DNA of 35,307 nt from Flavobacteriales bacterium (lineage in GTDB: Bacteria > Bacteroidota > Bacteroidia > NS11-12g > UBA955): assembly GCA_947472115.1 (NCBI GenBank), contig CANIZU010000002.1, forward strand, positions 1 through 35,307. The letters run 5' to 3'. Positions 18,548 to 34,016 of this stretch are shown here, one piece after another. The notes beneath the pieces were generated by a model that saw only the letters and a list, made by a program, of their open reading frames with translations, was not told the DNA's origin and did not search any database. The translations under genes were made by a program, and so were the position numbers. How positions within the stretch are numbered: the first letter of the stretch is position 1; each line of letters starts with the position of its first letter.

Positions 18548-18818
18548 GACTTTGATAGATAAGTAGTCGTAGTAAGTTTTCTTATTTGTATTGGAATCGG
18601 TTTGATTGAAAAAATCGAGTCGTAACTGTGATAATTAGAATGTCAAAGGATTAATCTTCAGTACACTAACTGTCGATGCATCACATTGCCATTGATTTGC
18701 TGAATACCGAAAATAAATACTTGCTTGTTTGGGTTAGGGTAGCTGATGATTGCTTCAGTGTTTGGTGCATTCAAATTGATTTGTTGCAAAGAATCAACGC
18801 TTTAAATAAATATTCTTT
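18493..18818. repeat. Copy A of a duplicated block: rlmD 3' end, intergenic DNA, 3' stub of a 552-aa-gene paralog, and the last codons of a CTD gene
   Basis: By manual alignment, 18493-18786 matches 26691-26982 with one 2-nt indel and scattered substitutions. 18783-18818 matches 28542-28577. The two matches abut at a shared GTTG. Copy A therefore equals copy B with about 1.56 kb (26983-28545) removed. Confidence 0.85.
18658..18786 (-). pseudogene. 3'-terminal stub (stop plus about 42 codons) of a paralog of the 552-aa T9SS protein gene
   Basis: Near-identical to 26854-26982, the C-terminal codons of the intact minus-strand gene at 26854..28512. It has no upstream coding continuation because the homology jumps to 28546. 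Confidence 0.8.
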
Positions 18819-18879
18819 CTTATTTTTTTGATAATAATGGTACTTGAAACTGTCTTATATTTACCAAAATAAAATTTAT

Positions 18880-21800
18880 ATGTTTGCTGAATTTAGAATT
18901 TTCTTTTCTTTTCTGTTTGGATTAATAGGAGTTTTAGCAAATGCACAACCCAAAGCAGTTCAAAATAATTCAACTCAACCGGCATATTTTATTCCTGATG
19001 AAGGACAATTCAAAGACCCCAAACCGTATTTGTATTTTGTTCAATTAGAAGAAAACGAAATTCAAATTAAGTCCGACGGAATAACTTGGGCTACAAATGT
19101 TTTGGTGCCTAGTAAGCCTTTATTGGGTGGATTAATGACTAAAATAAAAAAATCAAATCAGTCAGAAGAATCAGAGGAAGATAAACCTGCCTTTAAAAAT
19201 CAACAGTCGAAAATTGATTTACATTTTATTGGTTGCAATACCTCTTGCGTTATTATGGAATCAAATAAATCGCCCTTTTATTACTCCTATGGCGATAGAA
19301 CTAATCCTGTATATGGATTTAAGGAATTAAAATTTGTGGATTTTTATCCCAATATTGATTTGATTTATACTGTTGAGGATCAAAATAAGAGTTTTAAATT
19401 TTCTTTTTTATTAAAGTCAGGGGCTGATGTTTCAGCGATTCAATATGAGTATAGGCACAACGGACAGTTGATGCCTGTTTTGGATAAGAACGAATTGACA
19501 ATTGCGTCTTCCTCTTTTAAATTAAGGGAGTATGGCTTATCAATTGGTCCTTTGAATAAGCAAAAGAGCGATGATAGTCTAGCTGTAAAATATCGAATCT
19601 CGAATGGTGTCATTGGATATGCAATTACTGGAAATTCACAGAATTCAGAATTACTCATTGATCCATTCGTAATAAAACTATTGGATTTAACCGGCTCCAT
19701 TGTTGCAGTAAATAATCTAGAAAATATCCTGATTAAGACAGATGTAGATGATTTAGGTAATATTTATGTTTGGGGAGGCGGGGTTTATCCCAATCAACCC
19801 AAGCTAGCGAAGTACACACCCTCTGGTAATTTGATCTGGATTTTCATGGGTGAAATTCCTTCCATGAATTGGTATGCAACATCATACAAAGCTGGTAATC
19901 CTTGGTTATATTATCTTGGCACCTTTGTGTTAGCAAAAGAAACGGGGTATACATTTATTTGCCCGGGCTGTGCATCTGCAAATTTCACAATTATTGGATT
20001 AGATGATTCTGGTTTTGCAACAGGGTTTTCAAATGATACCAAAAATAGTTATTCCACTGAAGGATGGGAAATGTTGTTGAACTGCAAAAATGATATTTTG
20101 TATTATTTCGGTGGGGATTGGGGTTACACGAGTTATTATAAAATGAAACTAGATACCTTGCATCCTAGGATACAAAATTTTGGATTGTTCGGAATGTCAG
20201 CAGCGGCTGTTGATATTACTTCGGCTGTAATGGATGATTCAGGTGATGTTTATTTATTACTAAATGGGGGGTCTAGTAACCCGAAATTAAGGAGTTATGA
20301 ATGGAACAATGTGATTGTTAAAATGCATAATGATACCAGTAGAATTTTTTCTAGAAAAACAGGCTTTGATATCGCGGAGCGAGGTACGCATCCTCTATTT
20401 CCATGGAAAGCCGGTTCAAGAATGGCTTACGGCAATTATGGATTATCCAATAGCAGCAATGATTTAGCAATAGACGATCGTTATGTTTATTATTTTGATG
20501 GCAGGTATATGGCTGCATTCACTAAAGATAGTGGCTTTAGGGTGGGTGCGGATTCCATCAAAGCCTATGGACAATATACCCAAGCGGGCATTGCTGCAGA
20601 TTTAAAACAACATGTATTCTTAGGCGGCGACAGTGCTAAGTTGCATTGTTACACATTCAAAGATTCTATCTTTTCCCTGGATACCATTTTGTATTTAAAT
20701 CCCAAATCCAATCCCAAATCCAATCAGAAAATTCATGATGTAGTCTACTTGACAGCCACCCAAGAAATTGTGGTGATTGGCGACAGTCTTTTGGCAAAAG
20801 TAGAATCCCCCTACAAAACCATCGACTCAAATTATGTGTTCTCATTGTCCTCGCAACGTTTTTGTGGAGATTATGTGGTGGCAAAAATTCTAACCACCCC
20901 TTCCAAGAGCATGTCGTTCCAGTGGCTAGACAGCACAACTGGCAAATTGGTAAGACACGTAGATATCATCAATACAGACTCAGACACTTTGCCCAATCCT
21001 ATAGAAGGCCATGTTTATGTAGTGAAATTAGGAGATGCAAAAAAATGTGAGCGATGGTTATTTCAACATGTTTTTAAGGCCAAAATCCTGAAACCGGACA
21101 CGATAATTCAAAAGTTGTGCGAAGGAGATACCTTTATCGTTTCCAAAAATACGATTACACGAGATTCCATATTTAGCGTAAAACTTAAGACCGCCCATCA
21201 ATGTGATTCGCTGTTGAATTATCAAATAACGTTCTTAAAGAAATCCTCGACCAATCTAGATTTCAATATTTGCAAAGGAGATTTTATTCAAATAGGAAAA
21301 TCCAAATATTTCAGCGCAGGCAATTTCTCTGACACCTTCTCTGCCGCCAATGGCTGCGATTCAATTGTCCATAGTCAAATCAAGGTAAAACCAGATACAA
21401 CGGTGACGCACAATTTCTTGATTTGCAAGAAAGATACCATCGTTGTTGGCAATAGCAAATACTACCAAAGTGGGACCTACCTGGATACATTCATTCGATT
21501 TAATGGTTGTGACTCGGTGATTCAGACGAAAATCACCCTATTGGCCGACACGCTAGTTTATTCAACCGCCAAAATCTGTCTAGGCGATTCCTTCAATTTC
21601 GGAGGGTTGTATGTTAAATCACCGGGAAAATACTCGCATCAGTTTGTGCGCAGCAATGGCTGTGATTCCCTTGTGAATTTAACGCTGCAGGCATTGACAG
21701 ACACCACGGTTTTGTTAAATGCAAAGATCTGCAATGGCGAAACGATAACAATTGGCGCACAGGCATTCAAAAACGCGGGAAGTTATTCAATTCCGCTTCA

Positions 21801-22542
21801 AAGGCAATCGGGATGCGATTCTATCATCAAATTGAACGTAACTGTTTTGCCCACTGCTACATCGAATAAGCGAATTGTATTTTGCAATATTGATTCCTTT
21901 GAATATCGAGGTAAATTTTTCCCGTTGCCATTGAAGATATCGGACACTGTATTGGCACAAAATGGTTGTGATTCTATTTTGAAGATTGATATTGGTAGCA
22001 AATTTGTAAAAGCGGGTATTGCCATTGATACTTCAAATTCACCCACGGTACAATTCTTTAGCACTTCTACCAATGCCAATTTCTGGAAGTGGAATTTCGG
22101 AGATTTAAAATCATCTGTTATAGAAAATCCGTTAAATAATTTCCCTAAATCGCACAATTGGATCGTTTATAAAGTATGTTTAATTGTCAGCGATTCAACG
22201 GGTTGCAGCGATACATTGTGTTTAAACCTACCCATGAAACCCGGAGATTTGTTCTCTATCCCGGAGGGAATATCACCCAACGGCGATGGGGTTAATGATG
22301 TGCTTGAAATTTCTGGCCTCTGGGAATATCCGAATGCAAAGTGGACAATTTTTAACATTTGGGGGCAGGTGCTATTTAAATCTAGTACCACCGAAAATTA
22401 TAAATGGGATGGATTTGCTAGGGATGCGGCAGGCATAACGAATAAGAATGCGCTGTTGCCGGAAGGTGTCTATTATATCATTTTTGATTTTAATGATGGC
22501 AAGAGACCTGCTGTCGTTCAAAACCTATATCTCAAAAAGTAG
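18880..22542 (+). CDS. Very large T9SS cargo protein (about 1220 aa): propeller-like N-terminal region, six Cys repeats, PKD-like module, type B (gliding-motility-associated) CTD
   Basis: The ORF track start at 18844 is a TTG. The ATG at 18880 begins signal peptide MFAEFRIFFSFLFGLIGVLANAQ. Motifs shared with the 1111/1105-aa paralogs are FIPDEGQF, FYYSYGD, PNIDLIY, IDPF and D..GNIYVWGG. The PKD-like module has FWKWNFGD. The type B CTD is IPEGISPNGDGVNDVLEI...WTIFNIWGQVLF...KWDG...LPEGVYYIIF. Confidence 0.85.
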   Translation: MFAEFRIFFSFLFGLIGVLANAQPKAVQNNSTQPAYFIPDEGQFKDPKPYLYFVQLEENEIQIKSDGITWATNVLVPSKPLLGGLMTKIKKSNQSEESEEDKPAFKNQQSKIDLHFIGCNTSCVIMESNKSPFYYSYGDRTNPVYGFKELKFVDFYPNIDLIYTVEDQNKSFKFSFLLKSGADVSAIQYEYRHNGQLMPVLDKNELTIASSSFKLREYGLSIGPLNKQKSDDSLAVKYRISNGVIGYAITGNSQNSELLIDPFVIKLLDLTGSIVAVNNLENILIKTDVDDLGNIYVWGGGVYPNQPKLAKYTPSGNLIWIFMGEIPSMNWYATSYKAGNPWLYYLGTFVLAKETGYTFICPGCASANFTIIGLDDSGFATGFSNDTKNSYSTEGWEMLLNCKNDILYYFGGDWGYTSYYKMKLDTLHPRIQNFGLFGMSAAAVDITSAVMDDSGDVYLLLNGGSSNPKLRSYEWNNVIVKMHNDTSRIFSRKTGFDIAERGTHPLFPWKAGSRMAYGNYGLSNSSNDLAIDDRYVYYFDGRYMAAFTKDSGFRVGADSIKAYGQYTQAGIAADLKQHVFLGGDSAKLHCYTFKDSIFSLDTILYLNPKSNPKSNQKIHDVVYLTATQEIVVIGDSLLAKVESPYKTIDSNYVFSLSSQRFCGDYVVAKILTTPSKSMSFQWLDSTTGKLVRHVDIINTDSDTLPNPIEGHVYVVKLGDAKKCERWLFQHVFKAKILKPDTIIQKLCEGDTFIVSKNTITRDSIFSVKLKTAHQCDSLLNYQITFLKKSSTNLDFNICKGDFIQIGKSKYFSAGNFSDTFSAANGCDSIVHSQIKVKPDTTVTHNFLICKKDTIVVGNSKYYQSGTYLDTFIRFNGCDSVIQTKITLLADTLVYSTAKICLGDSFNFGGLYVKSPGKYSHQFVRSNGCDSLVNLTLQALTDTTVLLNAKICNGETITIGAQAFKNAGSYSIPLQRQSGCDSIIKLNVTVLPTATSNKRIVFCNIDSFEYRGKFFPLPLKISDTVLAQNGCDSILKIDIGSKFVKAGIAIDTSNSPTVQFFSTSTNANFWKWNFGDLKSSVIENPLNNFPKSHNWIVYKVCLIVSDSTGCSDTLCLNLPMKPGDLFSIPEGISPNGDGVNDVLEISGLWEYPNAKWTIFNIWGQVLFKSSTTENYKWDGFARDAAGITNKNALLPEGVYYIIFDFNDGKRPAVVQNLYLKK
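20701..20724 (+). repeat. Perfect in-frame 12-nt tandem duplication (CCCAAATCCAAT x2)
   Basis: Read directly from the sequence. It encodes the NPKSNPKSN segment inside the ~1220-aa protein. Confidence 0.9.
21115..22009 (+). repeat. Six tandem ~50-aa Cys-containing protein repeats (C-x-G-D ... G-x-Y ... G-C-D-S)
   Basis: Repeats begin LCEGDTF, ICKGDFI, ICKKDTI, ICLGDSF, ICNGETI and FCNIDSF. Each ends (N/S/H)(G/Q)CDS + hydrophobic stretch, for example NGCDSIVHSQIKV. Four equivalent repeats occur in the 1111-aa gene (about 23119-23706) and in the 1105-aa gene (about 29102-29689). Confidence 0.8.
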
Positions 22543-22569
22543 ACTTACCCAAAATTAACTTTCTGTACT

Positions 22570-24008
22570 TTACTGCTTCAAATAAATATTCTTTGATAAG
22601 TTGGGGCGATGACCGTCGTTGTAATTGAACACGATGTAGTAAACGCCCTCGGGGAGTAGTTCTGCGGGTTTATTGTTTTGGCTTTGGCCCGATGCGTGAT
22701 TGCGGCCGTCCCACGCGATGTTTTGTTGGGCATTGGATTCAAAGACCACCTGTCCCCAGCGATTAAATATCACCCATGATGCTTTTGGGAAGGCCCAGAG
22801 TCCGGGTATCACCAATGAGTCGTTGAGGCCATCTCCGTTGGGTGAAATGCCTTCCGGGATTTGGATTTCGGCCTCGGGTTTGATGGGTAGGTCCAGACAA
22901 AGCGTGTCATCGCAGCCAAATGAGTCCCTCACCACCAAGCAAACCTTGTAGCTGATCCATAGAAATGATTTGACATAACTGTGCGTGGGACTTTGTATGT
23001 TGCTGCTGTTTAGGTCCCCAAAATCCCACATCCATTGCTTGGCGTTGGTGGTTTTGCCGATGAATTTGAGCGTTGGAAACTGCGAAGAGTCTATCGAAAA
23101 ATCGGACTTAATGTTGTGGCTGATGACCGATAACGTGAACACCGAATCGCAGCCGGTGAAGGCCAATAGCGTATCGCGGAGCGATAATGGCAATGGGTGT
23201 TTTTTGTTTCGGTAGGCAAAGGAATCGGTGTTGCAGAGACTGAGTTGCTGAGATACAAATTGGGGTGAATTGACGGTCAACTGAAGGTTGATTAACGAAT
23301 CACAGCCGTTGGTACGGGCGGTTTTGATTTGGTAGTTTCCCGTGGCAAAAAACGGCAAGTTGTTGAAGCGAAGGGTATCACCCAAGCAAATGGCCGACTT
23401 GATAAAAATGGTGGTGTCGGTGAGGACGGTCAGGCTCGTGTTGACAATGGAATCGCAACCGCGGAAATTGGTGAAGGTATCGGCGTAAGAGCCAGAAATC
23501 CGGTAAGCCCGCGCGCCAACCGTGAAACTATCGCCCCGACAGATTTTCGGATTTAAAAAAGTAAACGAGCGGGGCTTGAAAGTGAGCTTGTACTGAATGA
23601 GGGAGTCGCAGCTGAATTGGTTTTTGAGGGAGTCGGTGAAGGTGGTATCGCGGAAATGTGAGAGTCCATTGTGGAACCAAGTATCAGCGGCACAGAATTG
23701 CAGCGATTGGGGGACGAAATTTTTGGGGTTGGACTGAAGTTGATACCGAGTAAATGCGCCTTTGCAATGAAAATTGCGCTGGATTTTCACGGTGTATTGC
23801 TGTCCGGCGGTGGGGTTAAACAGGGTATCTGAAAAGTGGTTGAGCGAATCGACTTGCTTTACGATTTGTTGGGTTTTGTTATCGGTCCAAACGAATGAAT
23901 ACTTGGAGGCTGAATCGCATTGGGGCAAGGTAACAAAGAGAAAATCATCGCAGGTGGCGGGGCCGTTGGAGTTGAATAACAGGGTGGAATCGATGCTGAA
24001 GTAAGGGT
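22570..24008 (-). repeat. 1.44-kb high-identity 3' gene module, copy 1 (direct repeat of 28553-29990)
   Basis: The manual alignment is colinear, with lengths 1439 vs 1438 nt. At protein level I count about 41 substitutions and no indels over about 478 residues. Identity collapses within a few tens of nt upstream of the NPY(F/T)SIDSTLLFNSNGP segment. Confidence 0.9.
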
Positions 24009-25905
24009 TGGATATTTTGGCAATCAAACTATCCCCGGTAACTATGAGTGTATTGCTGTTGATGTCATATTTCACATCTTGAATGCGACGGCGAGATTTG
24101 GAGATGAGAACTATTTCAGGTTGGGGAGTGAACTTTTTTCCGTCAAAATAAAAAACTTTTATGTTGCTTGAATCGCCGCCAACAAACACGTGATTGCTAT
24201 AATCAACGGTGACACCGGATTGTTGACGTGGGGTATCACAAATTGTTGAATCAACAGCGAGTAATTTTCCGGAATTAGCATGAAATCCGTAGAGGTTTTT
24301 TCCTTCATAGACAAAAATGTAATTTTTATCTGATGCAGTAGCATTCATGCTCCAAATTGGATAATACCGGACAGAAATATTCTTTACACCTGCATATTTT
24401 GCTACATCTCTCCAATTTGTGTAAATTCTTCCGCTAATTAAACGATTTGCGTAACCAGCTAAAAATGAATCAAGGAATATATGGGACCAAATTGAAGAGT
24501 CTAGGCCTTTATTTATTTTTATCAAAGAAGTCTCAATGATGTATGAATTGTTATTGGTTTGGGTGCGTGTTTTATTTCGACCGAATAACACAAATCTATT
24601 TCCGCTGGGGTCTTGGGTAGCATTATTAATTTGATGCTGATTTTCTGGCCATTGCCATTTTTCTGGGTGAGAAAAACGCTGAATTCCCGTGTCAGAAAAT
24701 TTGAGAATTAACTCTTCACTTCCATTGCCACCATAAGAACTCCAAGCATCTGATCCAAACGCAGTGTAGGAATTGTCCGTGCAATTACATAATAATTTAT
24801 CCACTCGGAATCCGTTACGATAGTTAAAATCTAATTTTTTGGTTTTTAGTTGTCTGATAAAATTGTCATAGTTTCCATTAGAATCGAGTCGAATCAGTTT
24901 ATTTCCGTTTAATTCATTGAAATCTTGAGTGATGTAAATTTTGTGTTTACCGGGAGTAACTAGAAAGTTCCCTGCGCCAAACCAATTTGAGTTACTATAC
25001 CAATTAAGACTGTCGATTTTTCCTTGAAAAATCCAATTGAGGGCCCCATGGGTATTGTATTTGGCTATTCTAAATAAGTTATTTTTTCCTGACAAACCAG
25101 AATTCTCTAATCCACATCCGCCATAAACATACACATTGCCCACTTCGTCAAAATCTGCATTGATTCCAGAATTTCTATAGAACGGGTACTTCGTATATTT
25201 TAATGTGTCCATGTTTGTTATTGTATAAACCCATGGGTCTATGTTGTAGGCTTCGTGCAGTTTGTAGGATTGTATTTGAAGTTTTACAGTATCATTTTCG
25301 CGAATAAACCTTAAGGAAACTGGCGTGCCTATTTCGTCGTAAACCTTCCATTCAGTTTGGTTGATGATTAAATATTTGGATATAATTGTGGTCTTGGCCG
25401 TAGAACTCCAAGTAGAGGAATCATCACCAGTAATTTTCCATGAAATATCAGAAATATTGGATCCTTTTTTTAAAATAATAGAGTATTTGAATCCGGAGGC
25501 TATTTCTGGATGTACTTCATATCTAATATCAATATTGGGGTAGAGATTTTGGATGGTAACAGATGCGTAACCATATGCGTTCAATTTGGCCAGACCATAG
25601 CTAAAATAATGTTGGGTTTTACCCTCTACGATGATCGTTGCATTGGGGTTTGTGTTTGTGAAAATTTGAGATATTTGTTTGCTTCCTGCTACACAAGAAA
25701 AACCATTTTTAAATATTTGGATGTCACAATCTTTGTCATTCAATTCAAAATCTGGTGCAGCGGAAAATTCACTATTGGAATTGAATTGACCCTTATTTTC
25801 AATGAAATAATGCAGCGGAAAGGGGTTGGTGTTGACAAACTGTGTTTGGCTTTTTAGTATTGACGCGAGTGTAAAAAAAGTAAGTAGTATTATTTTAACT
25901 CTCAT
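22570..25905 (-). CDS. Large T9SS cargo protein (1111 aa), paralog: propeller-like region, four Cys repeats, PKD-like module, type B CTD
   Basis: Signal peptide MRVKIILLTFFTLASILKSQ, then FVNTNPFPLHYFIENKGQF, YFSYG, PNIDIRYEV, IDPWV and DEVGNVYVYGG. The PKD-like module has QWMWDFGD. The CTD is IPEGISPNGDGLNDSLVIPGLW...WVIFNRWGQVVFES...AWDG...LPEGVYYIVF. Confidence 0.9.
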   Translation of the reverse strand: MRVKIILLTFFTLASILKSQTQFVNTNPFPLHYFIENKGQFNSNSEFSAAPDFELNDKDCDIQIFKNGFSCVAGSKQISQIFTNTNPNATIIVEGKTQHYFSYGLAKLNAYGYASVTIQNLYPNIDIRYEVHPEIASGFKYSIILKKGSNISDISWKITGDDSSTWSSTAKTTIISKYLIINQTEWKVYDEIGTPVSLRFIRENDTVKLQIQSYKLHEAYNIDPWVYTITNMDTLKYTKYPFYRNSGINADFDEVGNVYVYGGCGLENSGLSGKNNLFRIAKYNTHGALNWIFQGKIDSLNWYSNSNWFGAGNFLVTPGKHKIYITQDFNELNGNKLIRLDSNGNYDNFIRQLKTKKLDFNYRNGFRVDKLLCNCTDNSYTAFGSDAWSSYGGNGSEELILKFSDTGIQRFSHPEKWQWPENQHQINNATQDPSGNRFVLFGRNKTRTQTNNNSYIIETSLIKINKGLDSSIWSHIFLDSFLAGYANRLISGRIYTNWRDVAKYAGVKNISVRYYPIWSMNATASDKNYIFVYEGKNLYGFHANSGKLLAVDSTICDTPRQQSGVTVDYSNHVFVGGDSSNIKVFYFDGKKFTPQPEIVLISKSRRRIQDVKYDINSNTLIVTGDSLIAKISNPYFSIDSTLLFNSNGPATCDDFLFVTLPQCDSASKYSFVWTDNKTQQIVKQVDSLNHFSDTLFNPTAGQQYTVKIQRNFHCKGAFTRYQLQSNPKNFVPQSLQFCAADTWFHNGLSHFRDTTFTDSLKNQFSCDSLIQYKLTFKPRSFTFLNPKICRGDSFTVGARAYRISGSYADTFTNFRGCDSIVNTSLTVLTDTTIFIKSAICLGDTLRFNNLPFFATGNYQIKTARTNGCDSLINLQLTVNSPQFVSQQLSLCNTDSFAYRNKKHPLPLSLRDTLLAFTGCDSVFTLSVISHNIKSDFSIDSSQFPTLKFIGKTTNAKQWMWDFGDLNSSNIQSPTHSYVKSFLWISYKVCLVVRDSFGCDDTLCLDLPIKPEAEIQIPEGISPNGDGLNDSLVIPGLWAFPKASWVIFNRWGQVVFESNAQQNIAWDGRNHASGQSQNNKPAELLPEGVYYIVFNYNDGHRPNLSKNIYLKQ

Positions 25906-25936
25906 GTTTTTATTTTATGCTTGTTCTACAAATATT

Positions 25937-26326
25937 ATGAAAAATAAGTTCTTGATTTTTATTTTATTACTTTTTGTTCAAGTATGCAGCGCGCAGACAT
26001 TCGAAATCGAAGAACAAAATATGATAGTTCCTTGTACAACGGGTATTTGGCAAGTGAAGGATTCTTCAGGCTCAATACTTGTTTTCGGTTCATTTAAATC
26101 TGGAATCACACCTAGTAATGGTACATGTCATTCTGGAATTCCTCACAGTGTAGTTTTCAATAGTACAGTTTGCACACCTAGTATGGTGACAGTAATTGTT
26201 GGTGGTCCATCTGGTATTGCTGATTGTACATGTGCATCGACCACCTCAACACAGAAAGTTCAATATATTGCAAATGCCAAATCACCGACAGGTAATTGTA
26301 CTATGATGCTGTCAATTATTTATTAA
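25937..26326 (+). CDS. Small secreted Cys-rich protein of unknown function (129 aa)
   Basis: The ORF track start at 25826 would overlap the 1111-aa gene start. The internal ATG at 25937 gives a canonical signal peptide MKNKFLIFILLLFVQVCSAQ. The mature ~109 aa contain 6 Cys after the signal peptide and are Ser/Thr/Gly rich. I recognise no family. Confidence 0.55.
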   Translation: MKNKFLIFILLLFVQVCSAQTFEIEEQNMIVPCTTGIWQVKDSSGSILVFGSFKSGITPSNGTCHSGIPHSVVFNSTVCTPSMVTVIVGGPSGIADCTCASTTSTQKVQYIANAKSPTGNCTMMLSIIY

Positions 26327-26483
26327 CTCGACGTTAATCGCAAACGCAAAATTTTGGGTGATCTAAAATTTTTGTGTGACAATATTGCGAAATTAAACGT
26401 TCCTTTCGGGAAGAAGCCCTGCACTTCGCTCGCAGGCCTGTATACTTTGTGCCTTGTGATGTTTATGAACTCAAGAAATACCA

Positions 26484-26690
26484 TTAACGTTTCAGATAAA
26501 CATCCACCGAGATGTTTTTGTGAAGACCGTCACTGTATTCAAAAACGATAAAATAGATGCCTTCGGGAAGCAGGGTGTTGTTTTGAGATTGGCTTGAAAT
26601 GTTGTTGGCAGAGGCAACATTCCCCCTAACGGATACATTGCTTTTGCCATCCCACGCGATGTTTTGTTGGGCATTGGATTCAAAGACTAG
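26484..26690 (-). pseudogene. Truncated type B T9SS CTD fragment (C-terminal ~68 codons only) of a third paralog
   Basis: It translates to ...VFESNAQQNIAWDG...LLPEGIYFIVFEYSDGLHKNISVDVYLKR*. The stretch 26650-26689 is nearly identical to the 1105-aa gene CTD (about 28706-28745). Homology stops abruptly at 26690, where the rlmD 3' relic begins. The only start is a junction-created ATG. Confidence 0.8.
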
Positions 26691-26743
26691 CATGTTCACA
26701 CACCCATCACTTGGAGAACGTGGGTTTATGGGAGTTGCGGTAA
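26691..26743 (+). pseudogene. Relic copy of the last ~17 codons of rlmD, including a stop
   Basis: CATGTTCACACACCCATCACTTGGAGAACGTGGGTTTATGGGAGTTGCGGTAA aligns to rlmD 18493-18547 (CATGTTCCCACATACGCATCACGTGGAGAATGTTGGACTCTGGGAGTTGCGGTGA). It is noticeably more diverged than the adjoining intergenic repeat. Confidence 0.8.
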
Positions 26744-26982
26744 GACTTTGATAGATAGGTAGTCGTAGTAAGTTTTCTTGTTTGTATTGGAATCGGTTTG
26801 ATTGAAAAAATCGGGTCGTAATAGTGATAAAAAGATTGGCAAAGGATTAGTCTTCAGTACACTAACTGTCGATGCATCACATTATCATTGATTTGCTGAA
26901 TACCGAAAATAAATACTTGCTTGTTTGGGTTAGGGTAGCTGATGATTGCTTCAGTGTTTGGTGCATTCAAATTGATTTGTTG
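26691..26982. repeat. Copy B of the duplicated rlmD-3'/intergenic/552-gene-3' block
   Basis: Aligns to 18493-18786 (see copy A). Here it continues into the intact 552-aa gene. Confidence 0.85.
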
Positions 26983-28512
26983 GAGCAATTTTCCATTCAG
27001 ATCCCATATAAAAATGTCTTGAAAGGCCGAGGAAGATTGAATATTCCATTGGTCTTTTTCTGAAGGAATGGGACCAATTTTTACGGGTGATTTTGTAATA
27101 ACATGGTTAGAAGCTTTGTTTTTAGATAATTGCGCATAGGCGACTGCAATGGTGTTCCCTGTTGTGTTGTAGATGTCTGAACCGAAGAAGTTAAACGGTG
27201 CGTTAAATGCGTTCAATGGCAGGTGGTATGCACAGCTACTAGGATCAAAGAAACTATAGTTATAAGAGGCCCCTTCATCTTGCCAAGCTTGTTTGTAGTT
27301 CCCATTTAAATCAAACAAAATACACATACTTCCAGATGAATTTTTAATTGAATCTGGGAGATTCGGCCAAAGAGAAGAAGGACATCCATTAAGGCGCAAT
27401 CTTGGTCCTAAATTATTGCATCCCTCTATGAGCTCAAATTGAATTATGGGACTGTAGGAATTGGAGTCGCAAATGAAGAATTTTTTGGGACTTCCATTAG
27501 TTTCATTAAGTATCGCCATAGCACAGTTTGGGTCTCCGGCAAAAGGTACTTTGAGTTTTTTACCCAGCCAATTGCAGTTTCGTTTATAAATTAAACCCAA
27601 ATAAACGTTTCCATGATTGTCTGAACAGAAGTTGTTTCTGTTTGCTCTTGCACCTGAACTGTCGGCCCGTTTCACCCATAGGAGGTTGCCGTTTTTTGCA
27701 TAACAAAAGGTAATTACATCGATGAGATTTCCACCGGCAGGTGATGTGCGTTGGTCAGTTGCTTTGTAAACGGAGAATTTGTTGCGAAAACTGCTCGACT
27801 TGGATATTTCGACCTGTAAAAGAATCGACTGATTGGAAAATGCAATCGTCCTTGAAGTGCCTCCCGTGCCTAGATATTGGGCATTTATTACCTGTCCGAA
27901 ATTATTGATCTCCAATGAATAATACCCGCCGATGGAGTCTAATTTGAGTTCGCTAAAATTAGTGTCGGATGAAGATTTGTAATATCCAAGTGCAATTTTA
28001 TTTTGATTTACGGTTCTAAGCTCTTGGATACTAAAGCCAGTTTTAAACCACAGAAAATCACCGTTGGTATTAAATGAAAATAGCCTTGCGTTTGAAGGGT
28101 AATTGGTACCTCTGTAACTTCCAGCCCCTGAATTCTGCACCAATATTGTGATTTGGTTATTGTTTGTGATTACAATATCAATCAAGGCCATCGAAGAATC
28201 ATTAGATTTAAATGGATAAGCCCACGCATTGGAGGCATTGGATTTATTAATTTTGGTTAATACAGTATTGTAACCGTCTGATTTGCGATAAACCCCATTT
28301 GTTAATCGCAGTGAGTCGCCAATGTTAAACAGAGAATAGATATTACCCAAACTATCAAACACAACTTTCCTGGCTTGAGGAATTTGCCATAGTCCAGTTT
28401 TTCGTTTACCGAAATTTTGGACTTCCTTTATCCATTGAACTTTGGGTGTTGGGATTTGTGCTTCAATTTTCAGTGAAGTGAAAATTAACAGAAAAATGAA
28501 AATTCTTTTCAT
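26854..28512 (-). CDS. Secreted beta-propeller-like (SBBP-repeat-like) protein with type A-like T9SS CTD (552 aa)
   Basis: Signal peptide MKRIFIFLLIFTSLKIEAQ. There are recurring D..GN(I/V)Y motifs (FDSLGNIYSL, DNHGNVYLG). The C-terminal ~75 aa, IGPIPSEKDQWNIQS...IFIWDLNGKLLQQINL...VFIFGIQQ...RQLVY, resemble Por_Secre_tail. The CTD class call is tentative. Confidence 0.75.
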   Translation of the reverse strand: MKRIFIFLLIFTSLKIEAQIPTPKVQWIKEVQNFGKRKTGLWQIPQARKVVFDSLGNIYSLFNIGDSLRLTNGVYRKSDGYNTVLTKINKSNASNAWAYPFKSNDSSMALIDIVITNNNQITILVQNSGAGSYRGTNYPSNARLFSFNTNGDFLWFKTGFSIQELRTVNQNKIALGYYKSSSDTNFSELKLDSIGGYYSLEINNFGQVINAQYLGTGGTSRTIAFSNQSILLQVEISKSSSFRNKFSVYKATDQRTSPAGGNLIDVITFCYAKNGNLLWVKRADSSGARANRNNFCSDNHGNVYLGLIYKRNCNWLGKKLKVPFAGDPNCAMAILNETNGSPKKFFICDSNSYSPIIQFELIEGCNNLGPRLRLNGCPSSLWPNLPDSIKNSSGSMCILFDLNGNYKQAWQDEGASYNYSFFDPSSCAYHLPLNAFNAPFNFFGSDIYNTTGNTIAVAYAQLSKNKASNHVITKSPVKIGPIPSEKDQWNIQSSSAFQDIFIWDLNGKLLQQINLNAPNTEAIISYPNPNKQVFIFGIQQINDNVMHRQLVY

Positions 28513-28552
28513 ATTACTATGTGACGCTTAAAATGCAATTAGTTGCAAAGAA

Positions 28553-29990
28553 TCAAAACTTCAAATAAATATTCTTAGATAAGTTGGGTCGATGACTGTC
28601 GTTGTAATTGAAGACAATGAAATAGACACCCTCGGGGAGTAGTTCTGCGGGTTCAGTGTTTTGGCTTTGGCCCGATGCGTGATTGCGGCCGTCCCATGCG
28701 ATGTTTTGTTGGGCATTGGATTCAAAGACTACCTGTCCCCAACGATTAAAAATCACCCATGATGCTTTTGGGAAAGCCCACAGTCCTGGAATTGCCAATG
28801 AGTCGTTTACGCCATCGCCGTTGGGTGATATGCCTTCCGGGATTTGGATTTCGGCCTCGGGTTTGATGGGTAGATTGAGACAAAGCGTGTCATCGCAACC
28901 AAATGAATCCCTCACCACCAAGCAAACCTTGTAGCTGATCCATAGAAATGATTTGACATAACTGTGCGTGGGACTTTGTACGTTGCTGCTGTTGAGGTCC
29001 CCAAAATCCCATATCCATTGTTTGGCGTTGTTGGTTTTGCCGATGAATTTGAGCGTTGGAAACTGGGATGAGTCTATCGAAAAATCGGACTTAATGTTGT
29101 GGCTGATGACCGATAACTCAAAAACCGAATCGCAGCCGGTGAAGGCGGACAGCGTGTCGCGGAGCGATAATGGCAATGGGTATTTTTTGCTTCGGTAGGC
29201 AAAGGAATCGGTGTTGCAGAGGCTGAGTTGCTGCGTTATAAATTGGGGTGGATTGACGGTCAACTGAAGGTTGATCAGCGAATCACAGCCGTTGGTACGG
29301 GTGGTTTTGATTTGATAGTTTCCCGTGGCAAAAAACAGTAAGCTGTTGAATCGGAGGGTATCGCCCAAACAAATGGCCGACTTGATAGAAATGGTGGTGT
29401 CGGTGAGGACGTTCAGGCTCGTATTGACAATGGAATCACAGCCGCGGAAATTGGTGAAGGTATCGGCGTAATTGCCTGAAATCCGGTAAGCCCGCGCGCC
29501 AACAGTGAAACTATCGCCCCGACAGATTTTTGGAAAAAGAAAAGTGAACGAGCGGGGCTTGAAAGTGAGCTTGTATTGAATGAGCGAATCGCAGCCGAAT
29601 TGGTTTTTGAGGGAGTCGGTGAAGGTGGTATCGCGGAAATGTGAGAATCCATTGTGGATCCAAATATCGGCGGCACAGAATTGCAGCGACTGGGCGATGA
29701 AATCTTTGGGGTTGGAGCGGAGTTGGTAGTTGATAAATGCGCCATTGCAATGAAAATTACGCTGGATTTTTACGGTGTATTGCTGTCCGGCGGTGGGATT
29801 AAACAGAGTATCTGAAAAGTGGTTTAGCGAATCGACTTGCTTTACGATTTGTTGGGTTTTGTTATCGGTCCAAACGAATGAATACTTGGAGGCTGAATCG
29901 CATCGGGGCAAAGTGACAAGGAGATAATCATCACAGGTTACGGGGCCGTTGGAATTGAATAATAGGGTGGAATCGATGCTGGTGTAGGGG
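28553..29990 (-). repeat. 1.44-kb high-identity 3' gene module, copy 2 (direct repeat of 22570-24008)
   Basis: See copy 1. Both copies are on the minus strand, so they form direct repeats whose start positions lie about 6 kb apart. Confidence 0.9.
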
Positions 29991-31870
29991 TTTGCAATGG
30001 CCGCAACCAATTTTTCTCCGGTAGCATAAATTAGGTTGTTTTGGATGTTGTATTTTACGTCCTGTATGCGACCAATTTCTTTGATTCTAGAGGAGTCGAT
30101 GATGATATCTGCTTCTTTTTTAAACGTATCTCCGAGGAAAGTAAATACTGCCAATTTGGGCCGATAATTCCCAACAAAGATGTGATTGGCATAGTCGGTG
30201 GCCACACCAAATTGCATATTTTGCGTATCGAGATTGTTGGTGAAGGTATCGAGTATTTTACCGGTTTTTTTATTGTAAGCTGTGAGCGTTTTTCCATCAA
30301 AAGTGAAGGCGAAATAATTGTTAGCGGCTACGGCATTTGAATTGAAAATTTTTAGGTTTCTGTAAGGTGAAAAGCGCCATGTTCTGCCACCACTGCCCAG
30401 AAAATGTATCGGAGGGGATTGTGTCCAGAGATTGCTTTGTGAGTTTTTGTTTACCCGAAATAGGGTGTCATTGATTGTGCCCAAAGAAGCCGTGGCATCG
30501 AATTTCACTAAGTTAAATAGATTTCCCGATGGGTCTTGGGCTGCGGATCGAATGTCTTTGTATTGCCCCGTGTAGGTATACAACATTTTCGAAGAAATAA
30601 TACCCGTGTCGTTGAGTTGGACCATCACACCATTTGTGCCCAAGGCTTTGTATTTATTTTCGATGCAATCACAGTGCATTTGATTGAAGGTATTTGTCTT
30701 GTGGGGATAGGTCTTAACGAATCCGTCATAAAAACCATTTGAATCCAATCTAACGATGCGGGGTTTATTGAGTTTGCCTGTGGTAAAATCATAATCAGGT
30801 GCATCTTGTCCCAAAATTAGACTGTGTTTTACAGGTTCAACCATGAAATTGGTGTAATTGCCTGTTGTAGAGCCGTTTAGGTGCCATTTAATCGTATCTA
30901 TCGTGCCTTGAAAAATCCATTTCAGTGAACCATTTGCGGCGCTGTATTTGGCAATTTTTGTGGAGTTTCCAGCCAGGTACCATCCCCATTGTCCCGCACC
31001 GCCATATACGTAAACGTTGCCATGGCTGTCGTACTGTAAATTGAGTCCACAATTCCTCGCCAAGATCGATGCTTTGTTTGCTGCATCCCAAGAGGGCCAG
31101 CTTGCCGTGTCCATGTTGTTAATCACATGAACCCAGGGGTCGATGATGAGAGTTTGTTTTGGATTATACTGTGTTACATCAAGTAAATAATGGCTTTGAT
31201 TTTTTTGTATTGAAAACGCTATTGGCAGTGAATCTTGCTGAAAAATACGCCACTGGGTTTGTGAAACCTGCATGGAGGGCAATTTGGATACCATGGTGGC
31301 ATTGGCATTGATTTCTGTTTGTGATTCTGGCGAAATTTGCCATCGAATGGATTGAATATTACCACCTGGATGTACGAAGAAAGAGTATTTGAAACCCGCT
31401 GAATTGGGCTGGATTTCGTAGATTAGGTCAATGTGCGGATAGAAGTTTTTAAAAGTGATTTTTGAATAACCATAGGATTTTTTGTTTTGATCGCCATAGC
31501 TAAAATAGAATGGGGATTGGTCCTCGCTGTGGATTTTAGCATCGGAATTGGCGTATTCGAATTTTTGGAAAAACCGACTACGTCCATTGTTGATTGCAAA
31601 TCCGTTATTTAAAATTGCCACTTGGGCATGGTTGTCCTGGTACATGAACAACGGCTTAACCAATGGCGCTTGACCGTCGGGTAGGATGGGTTCAAATTGA
31701 CCCTTATTTTCAATGAAATAATGCTGAGGAAAGGGGTTGGTATTAACAAACGGGGTTTGGGCCCACAAGTTTTTGTGAATTAAAAAAAATAATAGCCACT
31801 GAAATCGTTTCAATATTGCAAACGAATTGTGTATGTGCAATTTCCTCTCGGACTCATGTGAATACAGCAT
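28553..31870 (-). CDS. Large T9SS cargo protein (1105 aa), paralog: propeller-like region, four Cys repeats, PKD-like module, type B CTD
   Basis: N-terminus ...FQWLLFFLIHKNLWAQ, then FVNTNPFPQHYFIENKGQF, FYFSYGD, PHIDLIYEI, IDPWV and DSHGNVYVYGG. The C-terminal 478 aa are about 91% identical to the 1111-aa paralog and include the CTD IPEGISPNGDGVNDSLAIPGLW...WVIFNRWGQVVFES. Confidence 0.9.
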   Translation of the reverse strand: MLYSHESERKLHIHNSFAILKRFQWLLFFLIHKNLWAQTPFVNTNPFPQHYFIENKGQFEPILPDGQAPLVKPLFMYQDNHAQVAILNNGFAINNGRSRFFQKFEYANSDAKIHSEDQSPFYFSYGDQNKKSYGYSKITFKNFYPHIDLIYEIQPNSAGFKYSFFVHPGGNIQSIRWQISPESQTEINANATMVSKLPSMQVSQTQWRIFQQDSLPIAFSIQKNQSHYLLDVTQYNPKQTLIIDPWVHVINNMDTASWPSWDAANKASILARNCGLNLQYDSHGNVYVYGGAGQWGWYLAGNSTKIAKYSAANGSLKWIFQGTIDTIKWHLNGSTTGNYTNFMVEPVKHSLILGQDAPDYDFTTGKLNKPRIVRLDSNGFYDGFVKTYPHKTNTFNQMHCDCIENKYKALGTNGVMVQLNDTGIISSKMLYTYTGQYKDIRSAAQDPSGNLFNLVKFDATASLGTINDTLFRVNKNSQSNLWTQSPPIHFLGSGGRTWRFSPYRNLKIFNSNAVAANNYFAFTFDGKTLTAYNKKTGKILDTFTNNLDTQNMQFGVATDYANHIFVGNYRPKLAVFTFLGDTFKKEADIIIDSSRIKEIGRIQDVKYNIQNNLIYATGEKLVAAIANPYTSIDSTLLFNSNGPVTCDDYLLVTLPRCDSASKYSFVWTDNKTQQIVKQVDSLNHFSDTLFNPTAGQQYTVKIQRNFHCNGAFINYQLRSNPKDFIAQSLQFCAADIWIHNGFSHFRDTTFTDSLKNQFGCDSLIQYKLTFKPRSFTFLFPKICRGDSFTVGARAYRISGNYADTFTNFRGCDSIVNTSLNVLTDTTISIKSAICLGDTLRFNSLLFFATGNYQIKTTRTNGCDSLINLQLTVNPPQFITQQLSLCNTDSFAYRSKKYPLPLSLRDTLSAFTGCDSVFELSVISHNIKSDFSIDSSQFPTLKFIGKTNNAKQWIWDFGDLNSSNVQSPTHSYVKSFLWISYKVCLVVRDSFGCDDTLCLNLPIKPEAEIQIPEGISPNGDGVNDSLAIPGLWAFPKASWVIFNRWGQVVFESNAQQNIAWDGRNHASGQSQNTEPAELLPEGVYFIVFNYNDSHRPNLSKNIYLKF

Positions 31871-31916
31871 TGCATCGTAGACTAAATTAGTAAAATACTA
31901 AGGTAGTTCTATTGAT

Positions 31917-32105
31917 ATGGAAAAAACAAAAGAAATCATTGATTATTTAAAATATTCAACCAAATTAAGGGTTTTGCGCTATGCTAAAGATTGCGGCAAA
32001 AATAAAGAGGCGTGTGAAGTTTTTGGGGTGAAAAAGAGTACATTTTACAAATGGAAAAGGAGTTTGAATAGCATGTATAAAGGCAATTCGCAAATTACTT
32101 CTTAA
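31917..32105 (+). mobile_element. Relic of an IS transposase N-terminal helix-turn-helix module (IS481/IS3-like), with no catalytic domain
   Basis: 62-aa ORF. LRVLRYAKDCGKNKEACEVFGVKKSTFYKWKRSL has the typical transposase HTH pattern (...a..fGVs.sT.YkW.kr). The ORF stops right after the HTH. The next ORF, 8 nt downstream, is an unrelated T9SS protein, so no DDE domain follows. Confidence 0.5.
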
Positions 32106-32112
32106 ATTTACA

Positions 32113-33936
32113 TTGATGAAAACTAGGTCATATCTATCAGGATGCAAAATAACATTAGGATTTTTGATATTCTGCTTATGCTTTGGATTCGTGAACCAAG
32201 TTCAATCTCAGCAGTTTGTCAATGGTAAGTTGGTGCGTAAAGAAAAATTTCCTGGTGGCGAAGGAGACACTTATTTAAAGTATGGTGCAGACTATAAAAA
32301 ATTATATACTCAAGCAAATATGGCTTCTGACCTGAATCAAGAAGGATATTTTAGGCAATATTACATTGATGGCCTTGATACGCTCAGACATAATTCTTGC
32401 AAGGGCTTTGCGTTAATACAAAATTGTTCTAAATATGGGGTTATTTCCACTGCCGATTCCAGTGTTTCTGCTGAAATTCTCGTGAACGGTGATACTTTTT
32501 CCGATTTCGGATTTAGTTTAAAAATAAATGCCCCATTACTAAAAGACAGCAATTACGATCTGAGCTTTCTGGTCGCTTCGATCGAAGCTTATCGCATTCC
32601 ATTTAAATTTTTTAATAAAAAGTTGAATCCCTATGAAGACTTTAAAATTTACATCACGCAAAGTAATAGCCCAAATTCCGAAGGCGATATTATTGCCATA
32701 ATTCGTAGACAGGATGTATACGAACTCGATTCGAGTACTTATTTCCCTTATACTTCAACAATTTATCCCAGAAACTCATTGCCTTGCACAACGATGGAGA
32801 CATTTTATTATCGGGTAAAAAAAGAGATTAAAGGAGCAAATTCGGGACAATATATCACCATAAGGGCAAAAACGCAAATCACCGATTCTGTATCGCGGCT
32901 TTTCAGGTATAATTGTAAACCTAGCGTATTATTCTGGAAAAATCAAAACCTTTTGGAGAGGGGCTTTTTATCCACCGACTACCAAATTCAATGCCCGTTT
33001 ACATTGATAAAAACTGGAGATTTATGTAATCAAAAAAATCCGCTTGCATTGAAAAGTTCTTCCCAGCATAACACCGATAAGTTTCTGTGGTCTACCGGTG
33101 ATACCTCCCCTACCTTAAATGTCATTAGCCCAGGTTTGTATTGGGTTGAGAAAAATAGAAATGGATGTATTGCACGAGATTCCATCATTATTAATAAATC
33201 GGTGACTGTAACAACAAGCACTGTAACCGTCAACAAATGTAAGGACAGCCTATTAACCATCGGCTTACAATCATCCCCAAATCAGAATAATTACCAATGG
33301 AATTCCGGCAGTAAAAATCAACGGTTATCCGTTTCAATACCAGGCTGTTATATACGAAATTCTCAAATGCTTGGTTGTTCCCTAGTTGACACATTTATGG
33401 TTCAAAATCACCCCAAGCACAAAGCCATTGACAAAATCAATTACACATTGTGTATGGGAGATTCCATCGTCTTGACAGGCCTAACAAGCAAGTTGGCTTG
33501 GTATCGTAAAAACTTTTTTTTGAGCAATGTTAGCGTTTTGCAGATTCACGGAGTTCAAGACGACACATTGGTATTGAAATCCATTGATAACTGCTGGCAA
33601 TTGGACACAATCGTCATAAAAGTAGAGAACTGCAATTTCTATGATACCGGGTTTCTCTACATCCCCAATGCTTTCACCCCCAATAAAGATGGTAAAAACG
33701 ATGTGTTTATTATTCCAGGAAAATCGATTCACAATTTCGAAATGACAATTTACAATCGCTGGGGAGAGCAGGTATTCTTTACTACCAACGCCGCCGAAGG
33801 TTGGGATGGTACATATCGAAACATCGATGCGCCTGCCGGTCCCTATATAGTTGTTTTGAAAAACAAATCAAACAGTAACTCGGGATCTCAAAACAATTCA
33901 CAGGACCTAAATATACCCATTCAATTGTTGCGTTAA
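32113..33936 (+). CDS. T9SS cargo protein (607 aa) with type B (gliding-motility-associated) CTD
   Basis: Signal peptide ...FCLCFGFVNQVQSQ. Internal W-x-(T/S)-G ... G-x-Y ... GC repeats are FLWSTGDTSPTLNVISPGLYWVEKNRNGC and YQWNSGSKNQRLSVSIPGCYIRNSQMLGC. The CTD is YIPNAFTPNKDGKNDVFIIPG...MTIYNRWGEQVFF...GWDGTY...APAGPYIVVL. Confidence 0.85.
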   Translation: MMKTRSYLSGCKITLGFLIFCLCFGFVNQVQSQQFVNGKLVRKEKFPGGEGDTYLKYGADYKKLYTQANMASDLNQEGYFRQYYIDGLDTLRHNSCKGFALIQNCSKYGVISTADSSVSAEILVNGDTFSDFGFSLKINAPLLKDSNYDLSFLVASIEAYRIPFKFFNKKLNPYEDFKIYITQSNSPNSEGDIIAIIRRQDVYELDSSTYFPYTSTIYPRNSLPCTTMETFYYRVKKEIKGANSGQYITIRAKTQITDSVSRLFRYNCKPSVLFWKNQNLLERGFLSTDYQIQCPFTLIKTGDLCNQKNPLALKSSSQHNTDKFLWSTGDTSPTLNVISPGLYWVEKNRNGCIARDSIIINKSVTVTTSTVTVNKCKDSLLTIGLQSSPNQNNYQWNSGSKNQRLSVSIPGCYIRNSQMLGCSLVDTFMVQNHPKHKAIDKINYTLCMGDSIVLTGLTSKLAWYRKNFFLSNVSVLQIHGVQDDTLVLKSIDNCWQLDTIVIKVENCNFYDTGFLYIPNAFTPNKDGKNDVFIIPGKSIHNFEMTIYNRWGEQVFFTTNAAEGWDGTYRNIDAPAGPYIVVLKNKSNSNSGSQNNSQDLNIPIQLLR

Positions 33937-33974
33937 GTTGTTTAACCACGCTGAAGTTGAATCTCTGTATACCC

Positions 33975-33996
33975 TAATGAATATAGAAATTCATTA
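33975..33996. terminator. Candidate bidirectional hairpin between convergent genes
   Basis: TAATGAAT-ATAGAA-ATTCATTA forms a perfect 8-bp stem with a 6-nt loop in the 80-nt gap between the 607-aa gene and sucA. The stem is AT-rich, so predicted stability is low. Confidence 0.25.
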
Positions 33997-34016
33997 AATC
34001 AACAAAACTAAATCAA

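Follow-up and report, generated by a model that had tools for sequence, protein, structure and literature searches.

Two tandem genes with a common 3' end

We analyzed a 35,307-nt stretch of a Flavobacteriales genome (positions 1–35,307 of contig CANIZU010000002.1, assembly GCA_947472115.1), here called the window, or W where it is set against the related contigs (L0xx) used for comparison. Two genes on its minus strand end in nearly the same sequence: gene A (22570–25905), an open reading frame (ORF) of 1111 amino acids, and gene B (28553–31870), an ORF of 1105 amino acids with a domain layout like that of gene A. The true start of gene B is possibly about 10 codons downstream of the listed ORF, and orthologs of B are 1093–1105 amino acids long. 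The common part, which we refer to as the module, encodes a stalk, a PKD domain and a C-terminal domain (CTD), includes the stop codon, and occupies 22570–24009 in gene A and 28553–29992 in gene B (minus strand in both). The remainder of each gene encodes the head, at 24010–25905 in A, where it comprises a DUF7948 beta-sandwich and a beta-propeller, and at 29993–31870 in B (both minus strand).

An ungapped alignment with the stop codons as anchor gave 123 mismatches over the 1440 nt (480 codons) of the two tails, an identity of 91.5%, with 42 of the 480 amino acids different and no indels; the count of about 41 changes in about 478 residues in the initial annotation was thus close to the measured one. 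Identity per 30-nt bin was 0.77–1.00 as far as position 24009 in A and 29992 in B, 0.53–0.63 over the following 90 nt, and 0.10–0.40 beyond that. The boundary at 24009/24010 is a step with no gradient, as had been proposed from inspection of the sequence. The heads of A and B were 34% identical at the amino acid level by BLASTP, and 10–57% identical per 30-codon bin in a codon alignment.

The difference between the two parts is as sharp at synonymous sites. By the Nei-Gojobori method, the synonymous divergence (dS) between A and B was 0.27 in the module, with a nonsynonymous divergence (dN) of 0.047 and a dN/dS of 0.17, compared to a dS of 2.7 (proportion of synonymous differences 0.73, saturated) and a dN of 0.66 in the head. 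Synonymous divergence is therefore 10-fold lower in the module, and the same codon is used at 367 of the 429 identical residues in the module compared to 100 of 187 in the head. The dS contrast excludes uniform divergence after a duplication and, together with the contrast in codon sharing, indicates that the ancestor of the module in A and B is much younger than that of the heads, beyond any difference in protein constraint. A segment of low dS with a sharp edge inside a single gene pair, the pattern by which gene conversion is recognized, is what A and B present. The two modules retain 16 identical runs of at least 25 nt, the longest being 78 nt, which is sufficient substrate for RecA-type recombination, at reduced efficiency. 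They form direct repeats of 1.44 kb with an interval of 5,983 bp. The arrangement of the window, with the same A and B modules, was recovered in two further independent assemblies, L043 (8 mismatches in 22.7 kb) and L044 (26 mismatches in 16.5 kb).

A second, much shorter patch of similarity lies near the 5' ends of the two genes, at 25784–25840 in A, where it encodes FVNTNPFPLHYFIENKGQ, and at 31695–31751 in B (both minus strand). The 4 mismatches in 57 nt that were first reported for it are true, and the initial 30 nt are identical. We considered the patch as a second conversion tract in A and B and rejected it: the same codon is used at 14 of the 19 identical residues compared to 100 of 187 (53%) in the remaining head (binomial P=0.06; Fisher P=0.07), and the motif does not vary across the family. 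Residues F34, G39 and Q40 of the patch are invariant, and E36 and N37 nearly so, among homologs of 20–30% identity, and the F-x-E-N-K-G-Q motif of DUF7948 is invariant or nearly so in 29 homologs. The similarity of the patch is therefore due to conservation of the DUF7948 motif at the amino acid level.

Domain architecture and predicted structure

Genes A and B share their architecture with gene D, an older third paralog on the plus strand (18844–22542; an ORF of 1232 amino acids with an ATG at 18880), which is convergent with A. The order in all three is a putative signal peptide, DUF7948, beta-propeller head, Cys-repeat stalk, PKD domain and type IX secretion system (T9SS) type B (CHU_C) sorting domain. 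With a cut-off of 27 bits for DUF7948 (PF25778) and CHU_C (PF13585) in the Pfam scan, DUF7948 scored 63.5, 81.5 and 78.3 bits in the three paralogs (63.5 in A), and CHU_C scored 66.0 bits in A, 65.2 in B and 61.6 in D. PKD_4 was matched in all three (28.6 bits in A). The NCBIfam model TIGR04131, with a cut-off of 35, was exceeded by B (36.9) and narrowly missed by A (34.1) and D (34.7). The tail of D is 36–45% identical to the module in amino acids and has two additional Cys repeats. The stalk-PKD-CTD composition proposed for the common tail therefore stands, with the correction that the sorting domain is of type B (CHU_C/TIGR04131) and not type A.

Protein A starts with MRVKIILLTFFTLASILKSQ, where AlphaFold places a helix at residues 2–15. 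The AlphaFold model of the A head (predicted local distance difference test, pLDDT, 75; predicted template-modelling score, pTM, 0.81) consists of a beta-sandwich followed by a beta-propeller, and its best Foldseek matches were 7–8-bladed propellers such as BamB, WDR91 and YncE, in support of the propeller-like head suggested initially. The model of the module (pLDDT 72) shows all-beta repeats over residues 100–480, residues 1–96 being of low confidence. The array consists of four repeats of about 51 residues with a conserved C...GCDS, then the PKD domain, then the CTD, and the best Foldseek matches were the stalk of the grappling-hook protein GhpA and PKD domains. A protein-database search with the module yielded only four relatives at 88% or more; the remainder were generic Cys-repeat/CHU_C proteins at 20–35%.

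Judging by this architecture, the products of A, B and D may be displayed at the cell surface and may function in adhesion. As far as type B cargo is described in PMC9143113, the host would be expected to carry the T9SS machinery and a cognate PorP/SprF-like anchoring partner. Pfam scans gave no PorP/SprF match among the window ORFs of at least 150 amino acids, and the T9SS machinery genes lie outside the window. Further T9SS cargo is present within it, namely a gene at 13430–15652 with a Por_Secre_tail domain and gene E (32113–33936, plus strand; 607 amino acids; CHU_C 64 bits, TIGR04131 47.5), which implies that the organism has a T9SS.

The module is joined to different heads in related contigs

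Pattern scans with the module identified 14 loci in species-representative genomes and 28 in metagenomes, all from freshwater Flavobacteriales/Bacteroidota metagenome-assembled genomes (MAGs) and lake metagenomes, and the set used for comparison comprised 44 related contigs. Every sequence in the comparison comes from a short-read assembly, either as a metagenome contig or as a MAG contig. Most MAG contigs break off within the module, as is typical of a repeat.

The module of the related contigs was 74–96% identical in amino acids to that of A and was carried by at least five head types, designated A, A', B, F and PIG-L deacetylase. Heads of type A elsewhere were 97–99.7% identical in amino acids to that of the window, those of L021 and L006 being 99.4–99.7% identical, and B heads were 90–97% identical to B of the window. 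The A' heads are 60–62% identical to A in amino acids and have in common with it the final ~120 head codons and a genuine shared 5' block, about 390 nt of the 5' end of A at 90–97%, which links A with this head type of other genomes. The F heads are 27% identical to A or B and are followed by only the final ~1.14 kb of the module, with a step equivalent to position 23711. In L035 (385–2286), a 633-aa protein joins a PIG-L deacetylase to the last 280 residues of the module (88%; PKD and CHU_C).

Expressed in positions of gene A, the breakpoints are at 24009, 24089, 24317, 24366 and 23711, with only the last 280 amino acids present in L035. The breakpoint at 23711 was found by blastn in L026, L029, L030, L031 and L042, where identity steps from about 45% to about 94%. 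It delimits a 3' sub-module of about 1.14 kb (22570–23711, minus strand) that is about 92% common with the otherwise unrelated F-type genes, and the tract of near-100% identity between W and L021 ends at about 23760–23800, roughly at the edge of this sub-module. The recovery of five head types, at least five breakpoints and a variable gene order, albeit from short-read assemblies, bears out the initial proposal that a variable head is exchanged on a constant chassis.

Incongruence between heads and modules

Neighbor-joining trees with Jukes-Cantor distances and bootstrap were built from a codon alignment of 19 full-length genes. In the tree of the head core, the genes grouped strictly by type, with 100% bootstrap for A, A', B and F. 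The tree of the 3' part of the module mixed the head types, with groups such as L002_B, L024_A' and L031_F (100%) and L025_B and L026_F (96%), and a 98% split separated two module clades, both of which contain F genes, B genes and either A or A' genes. The 3' part of the module thus clusters by island lineage, unlike the heads, and the incongruence between head and chassis phylogenies that the initial annotation had anticipated is found with 96–100% support. The module clade was not tied to the genome backbone: W and L026 share a backbone (nadC 95% identical in amino acids) yet belong to different module clades, and the backbones of W and L021 are saturated, yet their modules belong to the same clade.

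Genes linked on one contig can be closer in the last 1.14 kb than orthologs are. L017_A' and L042_F, from the same 68-kb contig, were 92.9% identical and L026_x and L026_F, also from one contig, were 91.4% identical, compared to 86.7% for the F orthologs L042_F and L026_F of different lineages. Linked paralogs that are closer in the module than cross-lineage orthologs are a signature of concerted evolution.

The orthologs of A and B reverse the pattern of the paralogs, the module being more diverged than the head. The A orthologs of W, L021 and L006 have heads that are 99.5–100% identical (dS 0.008) and modules that are about 92% identical (dS 0.22), with the switch point about 250 nt within the module; in the B orthologs, dS was 0.18–0.29 in the head and 0.38–0.60 in the module. 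A home-made permutation test of the PHI type, standing in for the dedicated packages, was significant for the modules (p<=0.001), where 58% of the informative site pairs fail the four-gamete test and Rm is at least 52. The same test on the B heads was not significant (p=0.74).

Gene content and order of the island

Genes A and B belong to a hypervariable T9SS-cargo island (18548–34016) bounded by an rlmD-like RNA (uracil-5) methyltransferase gene (17150–18547, plus strand) and the 3' part of sucA, which encodes 2-oxoglutarate dehydrogenase E1 (34017–35300, minus strand), both identified by Pfam. Every spanning contig has the rlmD-like gene beside the island. Gene C (26854–28512, minus strand; 552 amino acids), which lies between A and B, gave no Pfam or NCBIfam match. 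By eye, the C-terminus of the gene C product resembles a T9SS type A tail; the models gave no match. Gene C and the A head travel as a 4.4-kb tract (28457–23800) that is 99–100% identical in L021 and L006.

The gene order between sucA and rlmD varies in nearly every spanning contig. Read from sucA to rlmD, the order is E, B, C, A, D in the window; C, A, B, abiEii in L021; A' and an AAA+ gene in L016; A', four other cargo genes, F and AAA+ in L017/L042; X, B, D, A' and further genes in L025/L027; E, B in L023; A only in L015; and F, C, preceded by other genes, in L026. Gene E is variably present, being missing from L002, L011 and L013. In L025/L027, the B head and module are separated from D only by the 27-nt spacer found downstream of A in the window; this is the expected product of a module-to-module recombination removing the 5,983-bp interval. 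The suggestion that the direct repeats would permit deletion of the intervening DNA therefore finds its predicted product in these contigs, alongside the structural variants listed above.

A second pair of direct repeats, 286 nt long and 93% identical, lies at 18501–18786 and 26697–26982, the latter overlapping the 3' end of gene C. The pair brackets an 8.2-kb segment with D and A; L005, L014, L026 and L040 have a single copy of the repeat and lack the segment, consistent with insertion or deletion through recombination between the repeats. Two relics were also found. A CTD pseudogene in the A-C spacer (26487–26690, minus strand) matched module residues 422–480 in tblastn (53.5%, E=4e-18), and its 44-nt core is 95% identical to both modules. 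Just downstream of rlmD, at 18661–18817 (minus strand), a relic of the 3' end of gene C (18661–18789; 42 of 43 amino acids, the last 43 codons) abuts a 39-nt relic of the module end with its downstream flank. The pseudogene relics and the 286-nt repeat are scars of earlier events in the window.

The island gathers surface and defense functions. L021 carries an AbiEii toxin gene (13897–14850; type IV toxin-antitoxin/abortive infection), an AAA+ ATPase gene lies by rlmD in L016 (12626–14056) and also in L030 and L042, and the same island elsewhere also holds several type A CTD cargo genes (FG-GAP, PKD). Between B and E, a 62-aa ORF (31917–32105, plus strand), annotated as a gene in the ENA contig L043, shows a weak likeness (E ~1e-3) to HTH_28 and the N-terminal part of IS3-IS481 transposases, and may be an insertion-sequence remnant. 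Elsewhere in the window, at 13430–15652 and 9678–13420, core-like genes encode TonB-dependent receptors, a protein with a lamin-tail domain, and an Endonuclease_1 protein whose T9SS tail is of type A, which again points to the use of a T9SS by the organism.

Base composition and exchange between lineages

The GC content of the module is 48.7% in A and 47.4% in B (0.45–0.53 in 300-nt windows), compared to 35.8% in the A head and 41.0% in the B head. The initial annotation was right in the direction of this difference (47–49% versus 36–41%) and overstated it with its figures of about 53–58% and about 32%. The contrast is concentrated at third codon positions: the GC content at these positions (GC3) is 0.62 and 0.58 in the modules of A and B, and 0.33 and 0.45 in the respective heads, the value of the B head being like that of the core genes of the window, most of which have a GC3 of 0.40–0.49. 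The jump in GC3 tracks the breakpoint of each gene, including the shorter shared tract of the F genes.

Backbone GC3 differs between the related lineages, at 0.54–0.65 in L021/L016/L042, about 0.45 in the window and 0.36–0.41 in L015/L012, where the assignment of lineages depends on a few genes beside the island. The module (0.58–0.62) and the rlmD and sucA genes of the window (0.61 and 0.62, respectively) agree with the GC-rich lineage, and the B head agrees with the window; the level of the GC-poor lineage is not exceeded by the A head, C, D and E. The compositional break, which had been offered as evidence for conversion, does follow the breakpoints; it is probably mainly a mark of differing lineages of origin and not of conversion alone.

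The dS between W and L021 was saturated in nadC (2.9) and trx (1.9), 0.41 in sucA and 0.36 in rlmD at the flanks of the island, and 0.18 in the B head, 0.11 in gene C and 0.008 in the A head within it. The dS of rlmD was 0.26–0.36, compared to 1.9–2.9 for the neighboring genes, and in six contigs identity on the rlmD side changes abruptly at one common site, about 16776, within the trx gene. The variation in dS and the common step indicate several layers of transfer between lineages, of the island as well as of its flanks, and the rlmD-like and sucA flanks themselves appear to have been exchanged between lineages.

Discussion

With the mosaic structure of the genes, the dS contrast, the incongruent trees, the structural variants and the domain architecture demonstrated, we regard it as highly probable that A and B are tandem T9SS cargo paralogs whose module spread by ordinary homologous recombination over evolutionary time. 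The heads would be old, diverged alleles, and the module would have been copied more recently between paralogs and between strains. Recombination of a RecA type could have acted through non-reciprocal gene conversion, through unequal crossover and through the import of foreign DNA whose tracts terminate within the module. The module would serve as a portable homology arm: internal crossovers would put heads onto other tails, and crossovers between its two copies would delete, duplicate or permute the intervening genes. The conserved sucA and rlmD flanks would also be exchanged between lineages differing in base composition, and the GC3-rich module would match a GC-richer sister lineage. We envisage this on an evolutionary or population time scale, in a gene pool common to related lineages, with no programmed switch. 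The likely benefit would be that exposed binding heads diversify, for adhesion or for escape from phage or grazers, and that the secretion and anchoring parts stay constant. Frequency-dependent selection by phage or grazers is a plausible driver.

Several observations weigh against this explanation or limit it. In module clade 1, co-resident paralogs were no closer than others (W_A and W_B 92.0%, W_A and L021_A 92.6%). Homogenization therefore seems to work on a shared allele pool and not strictly within one genome, and a strictly intragenomic homogenization was rejected on the same comparison with copies on other contigs. No recent conversion is visible in the genome of the window, where the copies are 8.5% diverged. 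The Rm of at least 52 is so high that assemblers switching paths between paralogs or strains, or homoplasy at synonymous sites under GC bias, must be suspected of contributing part of the fine-scale mosaicism. Pairwise dN/dS was 0.1–0.35 everywhere, in heads and modules alike, and gave no support for positive or diversifying selection on the heads.

Of the other explanations, the one that survives best concerns base composition only. Frequent recombination of the tract, with gene conversion biased toward GC, could have raised the GC3 of the module without any GC-richer origin. The coincidence of the GC3 jump with the exchanged tract of each gene type, down to the shorter tract in F, would be expected from such a process, as would the high GC3 (0.61–0.62) of the recombining rlmD and sucA flanks, and an association of recombination with GC3 in bacteria has been reported (PMC4450053). 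However, a GC3 of 0.58–0.63 is native to the L021/L016/L042 backbones, and a simple import explains the same data. We consider GC-biased conversion possible as the sole cause of the break, though unlikely.

A broader form of the preferred explanation, spread by ordinary homologous recombination, is put forward tentatively and with more doubt than belief. The module might be more than a domain homogenized passively and serve as a portable display chassis and recombination arm among co-occurring freshwater Bacteroidota lineages (backbone GC3 about 0.38, 0.45 and 0.60), which would trade heads, and even the PIG-L enzyme, across species-level boundaries. Together with the module, the sucA and rlmD flanks would provide three points of homology, a scaffold for exchange of the island, and the excess of GC3 would be a footprint, below the scale of the gene, left by GC-biased conversion.

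The initial annotation had raised the possibility of a contingency or diversification system. In its programmed form this would be antigenic variation with high-frequency and possibly regulated switching of heads on an expressed chassis in a clonal population, as with pilE/pilS, vlsE, shufflons or diversity-generating retroelements. The geometry is permissive, with direct 1.44-kb repeats 5,983 bp apart and identical runs of up to 78 nt, and the small module-end relics and the HTH_28/transposase-like ORF at 31917–32105 lie nearby. However, Pfam scans of all window ORFs of at least 150 amino acids revealed no recombinase, invertase, reverse transcriptase or integrase. The best inverted repeats in the window were 70–75% identical over 30–55 nt, none of them strong, and there was no invertible segment. 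Two short scars were all that was found in the window by way of a promoterless archive of silent cassettes. Simple sequence repeat tracts were likewise not found in the window except for one A8 run (T8 on the coding strand) at 31782, in the part of gene B that would encode the signal peptide; no other homopolymer of at least 8 nt occurs in either module gene, and the run is a borderline slippage site. The copies, at 8.5% divergence (dS 0.27), have not undergone recent conversion here, and three independent assemblies have the same arrangement. The proposal of a contingency switch was thus not upheld, and we consider one very unlikely.

It is also highly improbable, in our judgment, that the mosaic genes and the gene orders are short-read chimeras assembled across paralog or strain repeats. 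Such an artefact would agree with the ending of most MAG contigs within the module, with the concentration of the differences between L044 and the window at the contig end of L044 in the B module, and with the implausibly high Rm value. Against it, three assemblies gave the arrangement of the window, each with identical copies of the A and B modules, and the step between A and B lies within single contigs in which the two copies, with their 123 differences, are uncollapsed. The pattern of an identical head with a module about 8% different recurs across unrelated projects (L021 from the Joint Genome Institute, L006 from a reservoir MAG, and L015/L003), and the junctions of the module ends with the unique flanks (rlmD, C, D) fall outside the repeat.

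That the two genes diverged uniformly in time after an ancient duplication, with a tail kept similar by stronger purifying selection, is hardly credible: a tail that must fit the T9SS and anchoring machinery and has a low dN/dS (0.17) would suit it, but it is already refuted by the dS contrast and opposed by the difference in codon sharing, by the tail of paralog D, which at 36–45% identity shows that the domain tolerates divergence, by the orthologs, which show the opposite pattern, and by the incongruent trees.

Comparison with known systems

Among T9SS cargo, the closest analogue of the mosaic that we propose for A and B would be the rgpA/kgp/hagA family of Porphyromonas gingivalis, in which adhesin modules defined at more than 90% amino acid identity form, by domain rearrangement and allelic exchange, mosaics unrelated to the strain phylogeny, ascribed to homologous recombination and gene conversion (PMC5266723). 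Both are sets of Bacteroidota T9SS surface paralogs with common C-terminal modules that are combined differently. The P. gingivalis proteins have catalytic protease heads, shared CAD/DUF2436 adhesin modules and a type A CTD, whereas A and B have a variable head of DUF7948 and propeller and a constant Cys-repeat stalk, PKD domain and type B CTD. The sequences are unrelated, the host of A and B belongs to an uncultured freshwater lineage, and the exchange of A and B, unlike that of rgpA/kgp/hagA, crosses lineages with synonymously saturated neighboring core genes.

The bab family of Helicobacter pylori may be taken as the closest general analogue. The genes babA, babB and babC encode paralogous outer-membrane adhesins with homologous 5' and 3' ends and a divergent middle, and conversion among them generates chimeras and variable locus occupancy (PMC4552749). 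The likeness to A and B lies in the homologous segments and the divergent region among paralogs, and in the chimeras made by conversion. Unlike A and B, the bab genes are at dispersed loci, are not T9SS cargo and are phase-variable through CT repeats, a type of tract that A and B do not have; bab switching has been seen within infections, whereas the exchange in A and B is documented on an evolutionary scale only. The system described here differs from these known analogues in the protein family and in which end is constant.

Flexible genomic islands between conserved core genes, such as O-antigen or capsule loci, are well known. The island resembles them in its fixed site between two core genes, its variable contents and its flanks, which are anomalously similar and would act as homology arms. 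It is unlike them in that it holds secreted proteins with an internal shared module mediating rearrangement, and not glycosyltransferase cassettes.

The top structural match of the module model was GhpA of Aureispira (PDB 9flp, 9flw and 9fly; Foldseek E-values of 5e-15 to 1e-12). Aureispira is a predator within the Bacteroidota that exports GhpA through its T9SS. Both have a beads-on-a-string stalk of Ig-like domains; the template-modelling scores of about 0.15–0.26, as expected of flexible arrays, and the 13–16% identity denote a likeness of fold class and not family membership, and GhpA is, unlike the module genes, a 5000-aa heptameric hook.

Significance

The diversification of surface proteins by recombination is a known phenomenon, of which A and B are a well-documented case without a new mechanism. 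The repeated module explains why these loci break metagenome assemblies, and orthology or strain typing based on the module genes or on the rlmD and sucA flanks will mislead. For surface display in Bacteroidota, a natural design rule would be that about 380–480 C-terminal residues are enough as a transferable tail. For the abundant uncultured freshwater group from which the window derives, our analysis indicates that T9SS surface proteins diversify by head swaps on a conserved secretion and anchoring chassis, and that these swaps cross lineages whose neighboring core genes are synonymously saturated.

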